Shown here piece after piece: positions 1 to 33,966 of a stretch of 64,000 bases of DNA (position 1 is its first letter; every line of letters starts with the position of its first letter). The position numbers and the translations under genes are program-made. Location: positions 66,624-130,623 of the forward strand of contig NMRA01000310.1 in assembly GCA_002633005.1 (NCBI GenBank). Direction: 5' to 3'. The DNA is from Phoronis australis. Taxonomy: Eukaryota; Animalia; Phoronida. Under the pieces are notes generated by a model, which was given only the letters and a program-made list of their open reading frames with translations, made no database searches and was not told where the DNA came from.

Positions 1-781
1 ACGCGAATTAATAGATAACAAAATCAAGTTAGAATTGGAGACAGATTTCGTCGTGGTCTCTTAATTCTCACTGCTTTTTCGTAACAGCATCAGAAATGAT
101 GAATTTCCAAGATGGCCGAGGGCAGATATGATGGACAACCAAAAATGGCTGACGACAAAAATGAAAAATTCAGATATTATATTTACTGGTGACTTTGGCA
201 ACTGGAAAGACTGTATCTCAGATGATTTTTAAATGGAGCAAAATCATTGATGATGAAATTATTCTAAGTTCAATTTCCATTTCATACAACTACTATGCTC
301 CCCATCTCCAAGACAAAAGCTTACGCCGTTCTTAATTTAATTTTCCGTTGTTGCTCTATACCATATTTACATAATTGTGATTCAGTATTTTAGAATAGTT
401 TCACATTTTCAAGGATCAGGTATCTATTTGCAACAAATTAAAGTCAGGACCACACAGAGTTTGATTACTCGACAGATAAGCGAAAAAGCACAATGGACCA
501 ATGACGACGAGAATCTCCATTGAAGCGTTCAGCATAAACAAAAACAATACTCTGGTTAGACGTGATGGTACTATGCGCAATGAAACAACCAACGCTCACA
601 CCTCCTGGCTGTATACTCTTTATAGACTGAAGACCGGACGGGAGTGCCACCTATGGGTCTCTCAGTGAGACCTACGTTAGTAGGACAGGTGTTAGTTGAA
701 TTGTGAAGAGAGTAAAGACAAATAGTTGTCTCCGGGGGTGAGACTGCTTAACTAGAGGGGGGGACAGTGTGGCTCACTTAC

Positions 782-799
782 CCCTTGCCATCCTTAGTC
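782..799 (-). CDS. Cav2: IIIS3-S4 microexon 3 (18 nt), (S)TKDGK(G)
   Basis: gatattacag|GACTAAGGATGGCAAGGG|gtaagt. Confidence 0.7.
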
Positions 800-1127
800 C
801 TGTAATATCAACCATAGCAATCAAAATGTGGTCTACTATAAGACGACAACAACCTCGTATTACTCCGCCTCCACCACTACTGCACCACTACCACAAAGAA
901 ACCACTACCCACACCCAAAGTAGCACCGTGTACCAAGTACAGAAACTATTTGTCTTTAAATGGCGTGTGAATTTTGGACTGGATTTGGAATCATGGGATA
1001 TATCAGTAAAGAGTATACACCATCTCAAATTATAGCACATGAAAAACCCAGTGAAATGATAGGTGACAGCAACAAACCAATGAAATGATCTCATACTAAG
1101 ACATGGTGGTCACTCTGCATGTCTTAC

Positions 1128-1145
1128 CGCACAACTTCAGGATCA
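1128..1145 (-). CDS. Cav2: IIIS3-S4 microexon 2 (18 nt), (S)DPEVV(R)
   Basis: Long pyrimidine tract, then ctttgtatttcag|TGATCCTGAAGTTGTGCG|gtaaga. Confidence 0.7.
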
Positions 1146-1592
1146 CTGAAATACAAAGTGCGCCAATGGTTAAAACGGGGAAAAGTGAAAAGGAGGCTTA
1201 AAAGAAACGGAGTAGACAGAAACGGAATTGTGCAGAACGCAAGAGCAGCTGTTTATGAAGCCTGTATTTAATTTTTCATAGTGGTACAAAATGTTTTTAA
1301 TTAACTCACCTGATACATTTACGCTATGTAAAATGACTGGAGTACCCATTGATAGGTAATGGGTAATGGTTATTAGTAAGTGTGGCATTTTGTCAATGAA
1401 TGTCAGCCACGTGCATGGAATTTTGGCCGTCAAGCGGTCAGTCATTAAAACGAACGTCACGTGTCTCTGCACGAGCAGAATGCCAAGTAACCCTCAGCCT
1501 ACTGCGTTACCCTTTATTTGTTTATCTACCAATAGAGCAAGAAACAAGCTCACGTGCGGCAAAACTGTCATAATCTACACACAACATAATAG

Positions 1593-1697
1593 GCAACAGT
1601 CACTTACAGGGGTCCTGCATTTTGAGGACGTTTTCTCTACTGAAAAATGGCCATCGAACTGCTTCTTAAAGTCTGGGATCCCTGTAAGTAACTATGC
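1593..1697. mobile_element. Palindromic MITE-like repeat, family with ttttgagaaccagttt core
   Basis: Arms agtcacttacaggggtcc and ggatccctgtaagtaact. Related copies at 2641-2738, ~34430-34525, ~36220-36310 and ~38510-38600. Confidence 0.6.
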
Positions 1698-2640
1698 AGA
1701 CATATGGATGTCAGGCTTAATTGCCTTGTGTGCAGTGTTAAAATGCCATGTTGGGTATTAAGATGTAGCACAGAGCTGATGGAACAGGCGCATTTGACCG
1801 GATGTATCACAATTGGAATAAAGTTCTTAGTACACAGTCAAAGATTTATAATGTTTCCGGATTTCACTTTGAGGCCTCTCTCAAACTAATAATGACGTAA
1901 GAGGCTGGGACCTGTGATGTTATCCCGACACATTTCCAGATGTCCGTCAGACGTCCCCATGCAGGGCGACATCACACAACCCAAGTCTCTCATGCCATCA
2001 TTACTTTGACAAAGGCCTCAGCGTGAAGGCCGAAAACGTTAACTAGGTACGTAAATCTTTGACTGTGTACTCAGAAGTTTATTCCAATTATGGAGCATGG
2101 AGCACACTGTGTACGCAATATGAGTTAATGGTATTCCATTTCATTGCACGGATTACAAGAGAAGCTCAATGCAAACTATGTGTAGTAGGGATCTGTTCAA
2201 GGCAGGATGAATATCAGGAGTCATTTTGCGTCAAAAACCTTTGCACATTCAAGTATTCAGTTTGTTTGTAGGTCACCTTAACACCCTGGGGTCATTGACG
2301 AGAGTGCAATCCTTTCACATTCTAGTGCTCAATTTATTGTAGTCGCCAAGTCTGGACATTTTTTGTTGACGTAGTCCCGCTCACATTGAAAAGGAGCCTT
2401 TTTAAAAATTAATAATTTATGGACTGCTGAGATGATCTAGTGACAAACAGCAGTAGAACACATCTACTGGAGCAATGACATGAAAAAAAAACGAAAGATC
2501 CTCATCTAAAATGTAAATTCACATTCAATCTAATGCAACTTCATGACATACGGTGAATTTCTTTCGTAAAACATGCTGTGAAAAACGTGTCAGTCGATTT
2601 GCTCAGACAGACATACTGTCTTCACACTGAGGTCACATCA

Positions 2641-2738
2641 GTAACAGTCACTTTCAGGGGACCCACATTTTGAGAACCAGTTTACTGCCCTGAATAACAG
2701 GCACCAAACTGGTTTTCTCCCCTGTAAGTGACTATTGC
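2641..2738. mobile_element. Palindromic MITE-like repeat (same family as 1593-1697)
   Basis: gtaacagtcactttcagggga ... tcccctgtaagtgactattgc, with inner arms gagaaccagttt and aaactggttttc. Confidence 0.65.
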
Positions 2739-2887
2739 CCTCATAATTGACACCAGTTAACGTAAGTTTTTGAAACAATGACATGCACATAACTGGACTT
2801 GGCACATGGCAAGCCCCGTAACATAATCTTGCTTGACTGGTGATATAGAAGCATAACATGAATTGTGAATCCCTGTGAGTGACTTAC

Positions 2888-2905
2888 CCCGCCGAATCTT
2901 GATGG
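2888..2905 (-). CDS. Cav2: IIIS3-S4 microexon 1 (18 nt), (S)HQDSA(G)
   Basis: tgtctctgtcgccctgtgttcag|CCATCAAGATTCGGCGGG|gtaagt. Confidence 0.75.
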
Positions 2906-4015
2906 CTGAACACAGGGCGACAGAGACACGAAAATCAGTTTAAAAAGTGTATAGTTAAACTGAGTGATTTTGTGGCCAACGTATGGTGTACTCACTGAGA
3001 ACCATCGGATGTGTTCCAATGACACCTCACTTTACGTGTCGTTCACGCAAGCTTTGAATTATTGTCCGACAACAGAATACTAGCAGACAAACCAGTCGGA
3101 CTACTTTGAACAAGTCTTACTTAAACGTAATGGAGAGAACACTGAATCCTTAATTTATGAACATAAACTTTGACTCGTTATGGTCGCTTTTTGCATGAAC
3201 CACAATTACGTCAGAACCAGCGCCCAGCCTCCGTACCTCTGGTAAGGACTCGAGATATCTCCTTAAAGAGTTGAGAAATAAACTCAATCTCTCAATCAAA
3301 AGGTTTATGTATCAGGTGAGGCACAGCATTTGAAACTGCAGTATTTGTTGTGAATCAATGTACAGTACATTTTACTTCATGACAAAATAATCTTTAGACT
3401 TGCACTATCTAGTGTTTCTCACTTCAAAAAATTGTGAAAATGAAGGGCAAAGCTAGGGGCAGGTAGCATCACAGGTAACAAGATAGTTGTAGAGAAAGAG
3501 AGAAGGGTAAGGAAACGACTCATCGTGAAGAAGGGGGTAGGGGGGTCCAACACCTGTGTTAGATACAACCTACCTTTCCTAAGAAACCACCAGATGGCAC
3601 TCATGCACACAAGCTAATGATATCCTTGCTTAACACTGCCGTATGCAAGATTAGTTTGTAATTTGACCACCAGGCGACAGTTTTTCTCAATTCTGATGAA
3701 GTCACTCGAACAATAAAACAATTGAATGCGATACTATACTGTAATGGGTTGGTGCCTAACTTCTTACACAATAATTTGTAACAGAAAACACTATGACATC
3801 CAACTTTTCAATTTTAATATCAGAGTTATGAAAAGAGTTAAGAAATCTACACTGAAAAACATTTTTAGGTATAAAACAAATCAGAAACAGTACCATTCTT
3901 AGTAGAACACAAATTCCGTATCATTAGACTTTCACTCGTCAGGCAGCAGCAGATACTACTAATACTGCAGATTATGTACAAAGGAAGTGGCGTGCATTGC
4001 ATAAATTCCAAGAAA

Positions 4016-4312
4016 TACGGTAAACATTCTCCAATTTGGGACACTATGAAAAATTAATTATTTTTCTCAAGGTCAGACCTTGTCCCAAAGTCTATAAATA
4101 GGCAGTACTGGTCGTCCCAGATTCAAGAATCACGGAAAGATGGCGAATGACCGATTCTTTAAATTGAAAACAAATTGTCTGAAATTTGAAAAATATGGTG
4201 AACGCCAAAATTGCTTTTGTCCCAAATTACGGAATCAAGAAAATTCAATTTATCTGGGAGTTACCGTGTCCCAAACTCAATAGACTGTCCTAAATTGGAG
4301 AATTTTATCGTA
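4016..4312. mobile_element. MITE-like element with imperfect terminal inverted repeats
   Basis: tacggtaaacattctccaatttgggaca ... tgtcctaaattggagaattttatcgta. Confidence 0.55.
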
Positions 4313-4876
4313 ACTTGTCCCCATTCAGGCATAATATTCAAGATTTAGAATGCAAAATTACGACACTCCATCGCTACGTGACCAATAAGCCTGTCATTGG
4401 TTGACGGTCAAACTATCAAGTTCTAAAATTATTCACTATCCCTGTGGCACACCATAATGTAATTCAGTAGGAAGACCCAAGACATTGCTTAGCCCCACGG
4501 TCATCAATACTGAATAAACTAATTATAACTAAAATATGATTCTGAACAATTTTGCAATCACTGGAACATACACTGAGCTTTAGAAAGAAAACAAAAAACA
4601 GATAGGCTAGCCCCTTAGTGCTGTAGATATTGTGACTGTGCCAATTTTGATTACTGGGCACACCGCCACAGGGTGAAATATAATGAAATTCAAAGCACTT
4701 TGAACTTAAATAAGGGCAAAATAAATCAAAATTCTTCGCAAGGCTTTCTGCCTAAAACTCAGCATGAGAACCAGTAAATTCATCAAAATCCAAAACAATC
4801 TGTACAGACATTGATTAAATTCAGATATCACTCGGTTGCTACGACAGTAGTTGCTAGGCAACGGCATCGTACTTAC

Positions 4877-4983
4877 GAGAATGCAAACGCCACCAGAGCA
4901 CAGATGACTACTGTGGCATCCAGAATATTCCACAAGTCTCGTGCGTAGGCACCGGGGTGGAAGAGGAACCCTAGATCAATGAC
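4877..4983 (-). CDS. Cav2: Cav2 exon, IIIS2-S3 (107 nt)
   Basis: [35 protein letters not shown](S); tttcag| ... TC|GTAAGT (phase 2). Confidence 0.95.
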
Positions 4984-6197
4984 CTGAAACATCAGAGGTC
5001 AAAAGTGGTTAGGAGTATAGTACCAAGCAGGACATTTTATAGGTTTAGACCTTATTTCAACCTTACACCGTTTTTTTTTAGGTAAACATTTATTAAATCA
5101 ACCAATACGCGCATAGATGTACAGCAATATGAAATCTAATTAAGTACATCAAACAAATTAAAGCATTATCGAACCCTATAAAAAACTAAGACCCCTTGCC
5201 TAGAATCTCTCAGGCGTCAATATATAATTATTTTAATAAATAATTTTTCCAGGTTGTGGTAAACATAAACCTCCCATAATGACTGAAATTTGGGCATAGC
5301 GTTTTGCAATCTTTGCTTACAGAAATGAAATTTTGCTAAGCAAAGAATTAAATGTACGACTTTCAACCTACAGGCTGGACCTCCAAATAAGGCGGTAGAC
5401 ATATCTGACTGCAGATGGACCTTGCTATACCTGTTATTGTATAGCAAGTGATGTCAAATACTTTCCATGGGAAAGTTGAAAACATTACTCAGCTACAGTA
5501 ATTCTCCACTAGTTTCGCACACCCACCTCATTTCGCACATCTAAAATTATTTGGAAAAAATATTTCGTACTTCACTTATTTCACACGAGACTGCGTGGCA
5601 GGAATTTCACACCTCACCTAATTCACTCATGGTCAGTTTCGCAGGCAAAGCAGTATCATTAACACCAGTAATTAACACCTTTTTAATTGTGTTAATTATG
5701 TCTGACCAATGCATATTCACTTCATTCATGGAATATCTCATGTTGTTGTAAACACGTGGTGGAACAGGTTGTTGGTGATGATTTGTTCGTCAGTTTATTA
5801 CTTAAACTCGACAACCACTTAGTGTAAATATATCGTTTTCAGTGAGGTGTGGAAATATGACGGGACAAAACGTTCGTAACCACCAAGTATGTTCAGTTTC
5901 GTTTACACCCCGTGACTATCGGAGTGAAATAGGCGGAGATTAACCGTAAGTTTCTGCTACAGCTGACACAAAATGGATTCCTTGTTTCGAGATACGTCAC
6001 CCTTCCACACTGTAGTCCATTTACTGACCCTAAGCGCAAGTAATGCTTTGCCGAATAAGCGGATTTCGTATAACTAAGAAGTTTCCGAAGCTGAATCCAG
6101 CTTTTGAACATTGACGAAGGTTTACATAGCTTTATTCGGTAATGTCAGTTGAAAGGTCAAAACTTGAGTTTAGTATCCTTTTAAGCTACCGACCTAC

Positions 6198-6387
6198 CTT
6201 GAGTAATAGCTCAACAGTGAAGACCGCTGTGAAAATGTAATCAAAATAGTTGAGATAGGTGTTTCTGTCGGACTTAGGGTTGACAGGGTCTTCCGCAGCC
6301 AGGGCAACGCTGCTGGCCAGAATGACGATCATGATGAATATGTCGAAGAAGCGCAAGTTGACGACGAAGTGTGCAAACATACGCACT
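6198..6387 (-). CDS. Cav2: Cav2 exon, IIIS1-S2 (190 nt)
   Basis: VRMFAHFVVNLRFFDIFIMIVILASSVALAAEDPVNPKSDRNTYLNYFDYIFTAVFTVELLLK; donor |GTAGGT. Confidence 0.96.
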
Positions 6388-7027
6388 CTACAACAACAAA
6401 CAGGTGATCAGACTGAATAAAGGGTCTCTTTACGCGAGACTTTTTGCTGAATTTTCACTGCACATTTTTTACTCAAGTGGACAAACCCAATAATTCTGCG
6501 TTCAACACAGTCCGTAAAGTTCCACAGAAAGATTTGCCTCAGCGCAGCAGGATATAAATATCTTAGACTAGAAAATACTTCGCAGCAGACATTCCCAACA
6601 GATCAAGGATTCTTTCGTGCTGACAGAAGGATAACTATTATTCAAAAAAAAAAAAACAATAACCCCTATGAAAAGGAAATCAATCTTAAACCTCTTTTAA
6701 ACCCACATGTGAATGACTGTGACCTACATTTGATTCCGTCAAAACAGACAAACGTTGGATGTACCACCACAAGACTGACATCAATTTATTCATAACACTG
6801 TTACACTGGGTTTAGGCAGGACCATCTGTTCATTACTGCTTGAAGCAAAGCACAGTGCAAAACATGGGTGGCAATTAGGTCAAGACAACAAATTGAGAAT
6901 TTAGTTATTTTTTAACAAAAGGAAGCTAGATTTATCACACCTCTATGACTTTAATAATAGTGCGAGTCGAACTTTAAGACATAAAAAAATGAGACGTGGC
7001 CTAAAACTACCAAATATATCCACTTAC

Positions 7028-7222
7028 GGGTTAGTTGGTCTGAACACAAACAATGAGCTATACGGCAACATGGGCTTGGGTTTTGGTGGACCAGAATTCT
7101 CCTCTTCTTCATCGGCTTGGTTAGCAGCAGGGCCCAAGTCAAATTTAGGGTCAATCTCAAGGGCAATCTGCTTGTTGTCCTTGGCACTAGAGTCCGCCAC
7201 CCGGCTGCCACTGAAAGAGATG
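7028..7222 (-). CDS. Cav2: Cav2 exon, distal II-III linker (195 nt; alternative in-frame acceptor at 7210)
   Basis: ISFSGSRVADSSAKDNKQ...EEEENSGPPKPKPMLPYSSLFVFRPTNP; donor |GTAAGT. Confidence 0.92.
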
Positions 7223-8135
7223 CTGTTGTTGAAAAAAAGGTCTTAGAAATTAATAAAGAAAACAGAGTTCAATAGAGAAAGGTGAGGACGATGCATCAAC
7301 GACGCAAACAAGCGTAACTTAAACTTCCATGTTTGTTCATGCAAGTGTGCAACATAACACAGAACAGAAGGTAATTAATTAGCCAATGTTGATTTAAAGA
7401 GGCTATTATTAACGATAAATATTTTAGTAGACACTAGCCAGTCATTGCACCCAACAAATGATATCTTAAAACTATAATATGCAGAAGAAACATATAATAG
7501 CATTGAACTGCCGCATTCACGGTGAAAATCGGATAAGAAACATTGTACTACATAATCTCCAACACCACAGCACTTTGCATACGCAACAGATTGAGCATCA
7601 ACAAGTGAAATATTACACTCAAAGGCTGCTACTGGGAGCAGATAGACATTAGAAAGTGCATATATCTCAATGTATATCAAATGATGGCGTGTCAGCAAAT
7701 ACCAGAATGTATAAAAAATAAGTCCAAAAGCACACTTTAGGTGGAAAACCACCAACAGATATCAGAAAAAGGAACATCGACAGGTGCCTAACAAAGGAAC
7801 ATCAACAGCCATTAGATGACAATGCATCATAGCAGTGTAGATATTAAATGTCAATCAATATGTACCACACGATAGTTCATCTCAAACGACAATATACATT
7901 GTATTAACTTTCACTTTCGGTCAATATGTTGTTTTTCAGAGCACAAAAAGTTATGATGGCTGAGGGATGATTTATTAAGTCGTTACGTCAACTAAGTAAA
8001 GGACTTTGTAAGAGGACTGTTTTTGCCTCTGACTGTGTCATTCAGTCATCTCAAAAACTTGAGAATGTATTTTTTGACACCTAAAAACTATAAACACCAA
8101 TCCAGATGGCGTAGTATACCAGTAAAAACACTTAC

Positions 8136-9049: not shown

Positions 9050-9985
9050 TTAAATTAGCAAGATTTTAATGTAATAAAGCACATGCCAATGTCAGCTACA
9101 AGGCCAACAGAGCAAGCCTCCATGAGAATGAATAAGGTCATGTGGGACCGCATAAATATGTCCAAATCTGGCAAACCACAGAACAACAGAAATGACTAAT
9201 CAGATACATGTGAAACCTTCAGATACTAAAGTGTCCCCCTTTTGCACAAAGGGTTGTCAAAAAAGGGATTTTTATAATTTTTCTGAAAAAATCAAAGTTG
9301 CACGAAACAAAAATGAAATAATTCAGAAAACAGTAAGCATTTTTGAAATATCAAACAAAATTTGGTCATGGTATTATTACCATTGTCTTGCTAAATTTTA
9401 TTGAAAAAACATGGCCACGTGACCAAATTAACGAGAAATTGGTCATAAGTTAAAAAAACAAAATTAATACTACAGACTTTCCACTTTCAATTACAAAAAC
9501 GTATACTTTTNATCCGCCTATGTTAAATTAGCAAGATTTTAATGTAATAATGCACATGCCAATGTCAGCTACAAGGCCAACAGAGCAAGCCTCCATGAGA
9601 ATGAATAAGGTCATGTGGGACCCCATAAATATGTCCAAATCTGGCAAACCACAGAACAACAGAAATGACTAATCAGATACATGTGAAACCTTCAGATACT
9701 AAAGTGTCCCCCTTTTGCACAAAGGGTTGTCAAAAAAGGGATTTTTATAATTTTTCTGAAAAAATCAAAGTAGCACGAAACAAAAATGAAATAATTCAGA
9801 AAACAGTAACAGCATTTTTGAAATATCAAACAAAATTTGGTCATGGTATTATTACCATTGTCTTGCTAAATTTTATTGAAAAAACATGGCCACGTGACCA
9901 AATTAACGAGAAATTGGTCATAAGTTAAAAAAACAAAATTAATACTACAGACTTTCCACTTTCAATTACAAAAACGTATACTTTT
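9050..9985. repeat. About 460-bp near-identical tandem duplication around a single n (9511); probable assembly or haplotype artefact
   Basis: 9050-9510 matches 9523-9985 with a few SNPs and indels; duplicated ORFs at 9192 and 9665. Confidence 0.85.
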
Positions 9986-33524: not shown

Positions 33525-33966
33525 AAATTCAAGGTACCTAAACTACATGGTCAACGGACTCGCAAACACAACTCACAGACCTGTAAACACCGTCCACTGA
33601 CTCACAAACACGGGAACGGACTCACAAAACACGTTCTACGCACCCAAATACACGGGACACAGACTCACATTCACCAGGAAACACGGTTAAAGGACCGCCA
33701 AACACGGGTCACGGACTCATCGGCTTCTTGGGTCAGCTGACATCTCCATTTTGTCCGTGACCCGTGTTTGGCAGTCCGTTAACCGTGTTTCCTCAGGAAT
33801 ATGAGTCCGTGTCCCGTGTATTTGGGTGCGTGGATCGTGTTTTGTGAGTCCCTTCCCGTGTTTGTGAGTCAGTGGACGGTGTTTGCAGGTCCGTGAGTCG
33901 TGTTCATGCGTCCGTGCCCCGTGTTTATGAGTCCGTTGACCGTGTAGTTTAGGTACCTTGAAATTT
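33525..33966. mobile_element. Foldback/MITE element with ~200-bp inverted arms made of aaacacgg/ggactcac subrepeats
   Basis: ttcaaggtacctaaactacatggtcaacggactc ... gagtccgttgaccgtgtagtttaggtaccttgaa. Confidence 0.8.

Follow-up and report, generated by a model that had tools for sequence, protein, structure and literature searches.

The intron that follows the IIIS3 exon of a Cav2 alpha-1 gene in Phoronis australis contains three segments of exactly 18 nt with the appearance of microexons, here called A, B and C in the order of the gene, and these raise the question of whether they are exons at all and, if so, whether a transcript takes one of them at a time or may combine them. The window, meaning the whole stretch of DNA that was analysed, is 64,000 nt long. 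The reading preferred here, to which we give a probability of roughly 0.6 on the strength of the sequence, is that all three are optional cassette microexons of the e24a type, used singly or stacked, and that a Nova-type protein drives A and B.

Most invertebrates have one Cav2 gene, which is diversified through splicing (PMC11828482). In vertebrates the IIIS3-S4 linker is the site of exon 24a (e24a), which adds SSTR in CACNA1A and SFMG in CACNA1B; SSTR shifts the activation of human Cav2.1, while SFMG apparently leaves Cav2.2 unchanged (PMC11580629), and zebrafish seems to own an additional alternative exon beside 24a (PMC2014790). Exon 27 of Aplysia, termed orthologous to e24a, adds AFDS, is used in the nervous system, was not detected in sensory neurons and is described as of unknown function (PMC10657410). 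Likewise, an oyster carries an NTNVPS insert at III S3-4 (PMC5818475). The link to e24a drawn in a preliminary description of this DNA is sound in that e24a, Aplysia exon 27 and the oyster insert all lie in the IIIS3-S4 linker, the position of the three segments being shared with e24a and exon 27 and their sequences not alignable. The best-known splice site of a Cav2 channel that concerns paddle toxins lies in domain IV, not in domain III. No description of a three-exon array at this linker was found in the literature searched, supplements aside; the splice site itself is already known, and the array of three is likely an expansion of it.

Exons of the gene were traced on the minus strand between about 48,600 and the IIIS3 exon, with the IIIS4 exon lying beyond position 1, outside the window. 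When compared with solved structures, the I-II linker exon scores 61-75 bits against Cav2 chains and at most 43 against Cav1, and the IIIS3 exon is best matched by residues 1203-1236 of human Cav2.2, followed by Cav2.1 and Cav2.3, such that for both exons human Cav2.1, 2.2 and 2.3 score above Cav1 and Cav3. The best-matching homologs, with 74-80% identity, come from molluscs, annelids and nemerteans. In a tree with 29 homologs, built on 14 exon blocks (588 columns), the gene falls among lophotrochozoan-type sequences but is excluded from the mollusc clade (support 100), and no sister group to it has support; that it pairs with the Bugula and Priapulus rows, which are short, is not trusted. Judged by its sequence, the gene is of the Cav2 alpha-1 type and lophotrochozoan.

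Transcription was followed in three raw-read runs and one contig run labelled as the same species, with about 18-19% of each raw run read. In a search of 500-7400, the joint between the IIIS2 and IIIS3 exons is spanned by four reads in run X1 and four in run X2, with CT..AC ends, which shows transcription and splicing of the gene in both runs. The same search returned no joint at the 18-mers, but no read got to the 3' end of the IIIS3 exon: across the four runs only 10 RNA reads fall on 4450-5095 and none of them covers 4868-4911. RNA reads that originate at other loci pile up by the hundred on a repeat at 2640-2720, and repeats filled the table of loose read ends.

Features of the window and of related loci. 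Microexon candidates A to C are read from DNA; positions in loci L016 and L077 are those of the respective locus.
Feature	Position	Strand	Remarks
Exon IIIS1-S2 of Cav2	6198..6383	-	tblastn to Cav2 homologs; upstream edge approximate; RNA joint to IIIS3 exon
Constitutive IIIS3 exon	4877..4983	-	phase-2 end, TC|gtaagt; RNA joint; solved-structure match
Candidate microexon A	2888..2905	-	18 nt, cag/gtaagt; x-HQDSA-GG, adds HQDSAG
Candidate microexon B	1128..1145	-	18 nt, cag/gtaaga; x-DPEVV-CG, adds DPEVVR
Candidate microexon C	782..799	-	18 nt, cag/gtaagt; x-TKDGK-GG, adds TKDGKG
YCAY cluster behind A, predicted Nova-type enhancer	2788..2887	-	6 motifs/100 nt; reached by 1.6% of same-strand windows
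YCAY cluster behind B, predicted Nova-type enhancer	1028..1127	-	8 motifs/100 nt; reached by 0.14% of same-strand windows
CAG..GTGAG segment before B	1336-1310	-	27 nt; 126 AG-free bases upstream; stop in phase 2
Two nested perfect inverted repeats around C	610..1019	-	1019-1007 with 622-610; 958-944 with 727-713
Two IS4 exon versions	40390-40333 and 39071-38961	-	upstream edge of first uncertain
Two domain I turret and pore-loop exon copies	31605-31397 and 30340-30140	-	intact-looking; edges approximate
Two domain II S5-pore exon copies	16943-16872 WNFEDGRPKQHYDTF and 16630-16559 WNFPDGRPHANYDTF	-	about 310 nt apart; edges approximate
Candidate microexon in locus L016, unannotated	744-761		18 nt, phase-2 open, GG|gtaag; 69 AG-free bases upstream, 6 YCAY downstream
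Candidate microexon in locus L077, unannotated	2196-2207		12 nt; incomplete intron

All three segments are short, in frame and stop-free, as e24a-type cassettes are, and occupy a phase-2 intron bounded upstream by the IIIS3 exon, as seen directly, and downstream, presumably, by the IIIS4 exon. The split codons at the successive joints begin with TC, GG, CG and GG, which are all fourfold degenerate, so that every combination of exons stays open and the boundary residues are fixed. The sites are not equally furnished: the 20 nt of the acceptor tract hold 15 pyrimidines in A, 13 in B and 10 in C, and the stretch free of AG upstream of the acceptor extends for about 52 nt in A and about 49 nt in B, with the nearest AG of C at -35. 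Neural microexons of the eMIC/SRRM4 type are at most 27 nt long and have UGC just upstream of the acceptor; all of A, B and C fall within that length, and within 60 nt upstream of the acceptor TGC is found at C only (at -20). C is the weakest-signalled of the three.

The 4876-nt stretch past the IIIS3 exon contains seven strict pairs of the form CAG(3-60)GTAAG, three of which enclose 18 nt. Dinucleotide shuffles of this stretch (n = 5000) had on average 0.06 strict pairs of 18 nt, never three of them (0/5000), and three of any one length in 0.14% of cases; similarly, none of 228 real control windows of 4876 nt taken elsewhere in the window held a triple of one length. With loose sites (YAG/GTRAG), a same-length triple arises in 12% of shuffles, or 3.8% if only frame-keeping lengths are counted, so the statistical strength depends on the strict sites. 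Furthermore, two CAG-18-GTAAG pairs are also present on the plus, non-coding strand, which means that a lone pair of this kind may be due to chance. The preliminary description had given the coordinates and reading frames of the three segments, which are all correct, had assigned the gene to Cav2, which the scores above uphold, and had held the array unlikely to be a product of chance, which is borne out for strict sites.

A second signal, independent of exon length, comes from the sequence downstream of the segments. Clusters of YCAY downstream of an exon enhance its inclusion. Of 308 YAG(3-60)GTRAG pairs on both strands of the window, just two are followed by at least six YCAY motifs within 100 nt, namely A (6) and B (8); as the cut-off of six was picked after A had been seen and the 308 pairs overlap, this count is taken as support and given no P value. 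C, with three motifs in its downstream 100 nt, is of ordinary density (strand mean 1.75), such that Nova-type motifs beside the exon, as in e24a, are present at A and B and not at C. Nova binds YCAY, and Nova2 enhances inclusion of exon 24a in brain (PMC12149502); the Nova cluster of Cacna1b is retained in chicken and zebrafish (PMC2014790).

Together, the strict-site statistics and the YCAY motifs at A and B make the microexon status proposed in the preliminary description probable at the level of DNA: A and B are each very probably used exons, and C probably is one as well. It is highly improbable that none of the three is ever spliced and that all are intronic look-alikes due to chance, given these two lines of evidence and the position of the segments at a known cassette site that carries six-residue inserts in molluscs, although the frequency of loose-site triples would accommodate such an origin, as would the fact that RNA support for the 18-mers was not obtained from the portion of the raw runs that was read. 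A narrower doubt attaches to C, which might be decayed or a chance pseudo-exon, leaving only A and B, or one of them, in use. Its low pyrimidine content, short AG-free stretch and ordinary YCAY density are what this would predict, the non-coding strand provides two chance pairs of the same form, and the paired isoforms of relatives stack no more than two inserts among the members listed; nevertheless C, which is open in phase 2, combines a full GG|gtaagt donor with the TGC at -20, and with only 0.06 strict 18-nt pairs expected in the stretch we regard its dismissal as improbable.

The same intron was examined in relatives, represented by the best 80 of 92 metagenome loci carrying the IIIS3 exon. 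A GT donor is present at the identical phase-2 position in 70 of these 80; six are without it, comprising two intron-less loci, three with a different exon end and one that is cut off, and four fell outside the donor search pattern. In all 31 loci that have both exons, taking the acceptor judged best, the IIIS4 exon holds a linker of its own (DSGSAG, GSSTG, ENGAG or SDGG...GAG), and the segments are therefore likely to be optional additions rather than a missing linker; an obligate linker exon is unlikely for the same reason. The preliminary description had hinted that DSAG and GKG in the segments represent the residues usually preceding S4, and this is not supported, as relatives encode such residues in the IIIS4 exon. 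None of the homolog linkers compared matches the three peptides except in these DSAG-type residues, and the DSAG likeness of A is, by this comparison, probably incidental.

In the related loci 31 introns are complete, many of them short or from distant groups, and none contains an 18-nt candidate; as the peptides are also unmatched, direct conservation of the segments is not established. Candidates do occur in incomplete introns, as in L016 and L077; that of L016 has 8 of 18 bases in common with A, too few for orthology to be established. Three further 18-nt candidates, in L022-L024, have weak donors. Annotation pipelines probably miss exons of this kind.

Variation at the linker is nevertheless evident in database gene models, for which ten isoform clusters were tallied with at most 15 members listed each, all counts referring to the members listed. 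Six of the ten clusters vary at this position. A six-residue insert is present in 9 of 15 Haliotis asinina models and absent from the other 6; in H. cracherodii/rufescens, two six-residue inserts occur together in 14 of 16, with the second alone in one and neither in one. Similarly, among the 12 Crassostrea/Magallana models that include S4, five have no insert, six have six residues and one has six plus nine. Of the Ruditapes models with S4, 11 of 13 have a six-residue insert and 2 do not, while Lineus has a five-residue insert in 14 of 15 and Gigantopelta a nine-residue insert in 9 of the 11 with S4. The remaining four clusters, of Glandiceps, Argopecten, Mytilus and Amphiura, show no linker variation among the members listed. 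Stacking is represented by the models XP_071097067.1, XP_071097066.1 and XP_071097094.1 of Haliotis and XP_065931420.1 of Magallana gigas, in which, these being protein-level gene models, the second insert could be due to an alternative splice site and need not be an exon.

These isoforms bear on whether the segments might be real exons that exclude one another, with at most one in each transcript, or exactly one if the IIIS4 exon of this species has lost its own linker. Identical length and phase in A, B and C would suit such an arrangement, as would the DSAG within A, which is like the mollusc linker, the three apparent duplicated exon pairs elsewhere in the gene, and the inverted repeats around C together with one 14-nt pair around A. 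However, tandem duplication is not evident, with pairwise identities of just 8, 8 and 6 of 18 bases between the exons and 11-14 of 37 between the upstream flanks, even if an old duplication is possible for exons this short. The spacers of 1742 nt (A-B) and 328 nt (B-C) exceed the range of steric interference, all sites are GT-AG, all lengths are multiples of three so that double inclusion stays in frame, and no docking site or selector common to the exons was found among the 25 longest of 50 inverted pairs. Thus none of these hallmarks of exclusion was found at the array, and nothing found enforces it; with inserts stacked in the models of relatives and a linker within IIIS4 at 31 of 31 loci, mutual exclusion appears improbable as well, if by a hair less so than the loss of C. 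The preliminary description left open whether the segments are exclusive or additive, and the stacked inserts of relatives and the absence of evident duplication incline us to optional and additive use.

The inverted repeats nested around C could have a different role. At least two such pairs are seen in just 0.2% of 1000 shuffles, but the real window holds 18 of them, many from hairpin elements. The nested repeats could act as RNA stems looping C out, although the fold predicted for the region around C is no better than that of shuffles (z 0.0) and includes the outer stem alone. Hairpin-type interspersed elements were observed at 1808-2092, at 1592-1693 and 2643-2739, and at 33528-33962. Were the 27-nt segment before B used, its phase-2 stop would make it a poison or decoy exon; its donor is part of a perfect 14-nt inverted repeat whose other arm is at 3307-3320, the two arms lying on either side of A.

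If the segments are optional, additive cassettes, each would lengthen the outer S3-S4 loop of voltage sensor III by six residues, placed after an invariant Ser. The basic linker would likely come from the IIIS4 exon beyond the window, in which case skipping all three yields a normal channel. A Nova-type protein acting on the YCAY clusters would switch A and B on in some neurons; C may be included more rarely, or RNA stems may keep it out. We infer the splicing, the additivity, the Nova control and any effect on gating, the last of which could be nil. An extended form of the proposal, in which all three segments are used combinatorially to give up to eight versions of the loop with 0-18 extra residues, with Nova acting on A and B and the nested stems gating C, is unlikely, though less so than either mutual exclusion or the loss of C.

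Among known systems, vertebrate e24a is similar in being a short in-frame insert in the IIIS3-S4 linker with Nova-type YCAY motifs; by contrast, it measures 12 nt rather than 18, is one exon in mammals as opposed to three candidates, and has no likeness in sequence. The Aplysia AFDS and Crassostrea NTNVPS inserts are closer in being optional at the same site of a lophotrochozoan Cav2, that of the oyster also having six residues, yet both are single cassettes as described and their peptides are unrelated. Haliotis cracherodii/rufescens and Magallana gigas offer two co-occurring inserts, both of six residues in the abalone, rather than three, and are known from gene models. Finally, the mutually exclusive exon pairs of invertebrate Cav2, as in Drosophila cacophony and exon 33a/b of Aplysia, are also same-position alternatives within the gene family, but serve as obligate alternatives for a fixed segment, whereas the 18-mers show no evident duplication and can probably be dispensed with.

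An array of this type likely lets neurons vary both the length and the charge of one voltage-sensor loop. If used, three inserts of equal length and differing charge would amount to a natural series in which loop length can be parted from loop chemistry. The YCAY clusters present a testable case for Nova-type control of this site predating vertebrates, and were combinatorial use to prove true, Nova control would be common to vertebrates and lophotrochozoans despite a full turnover of the exon sequences.

Other parts of the gene also have apparent alternative exons. Near-identical reading frames mark a tandem duplication of about 470 nt (9055-9486 and 9528-9961), which adjoins an N at 9511 and may be an assembly join. 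The two IS4 exon versions are probably mutually exclusive and presumably resemble the cacophony IS4 pair of Drosophila. The two copies of the domain I turret and pore-loop exon, which have the same 16-residue ending and differ in their cysteine-rich turrets, are likely to be mutually exclusive, and this is likewise likely for the domain II S5-pore copies; in snail Cav3, alternative exons in the domain II S5-pore loop alter ion preference (PMC9694082).
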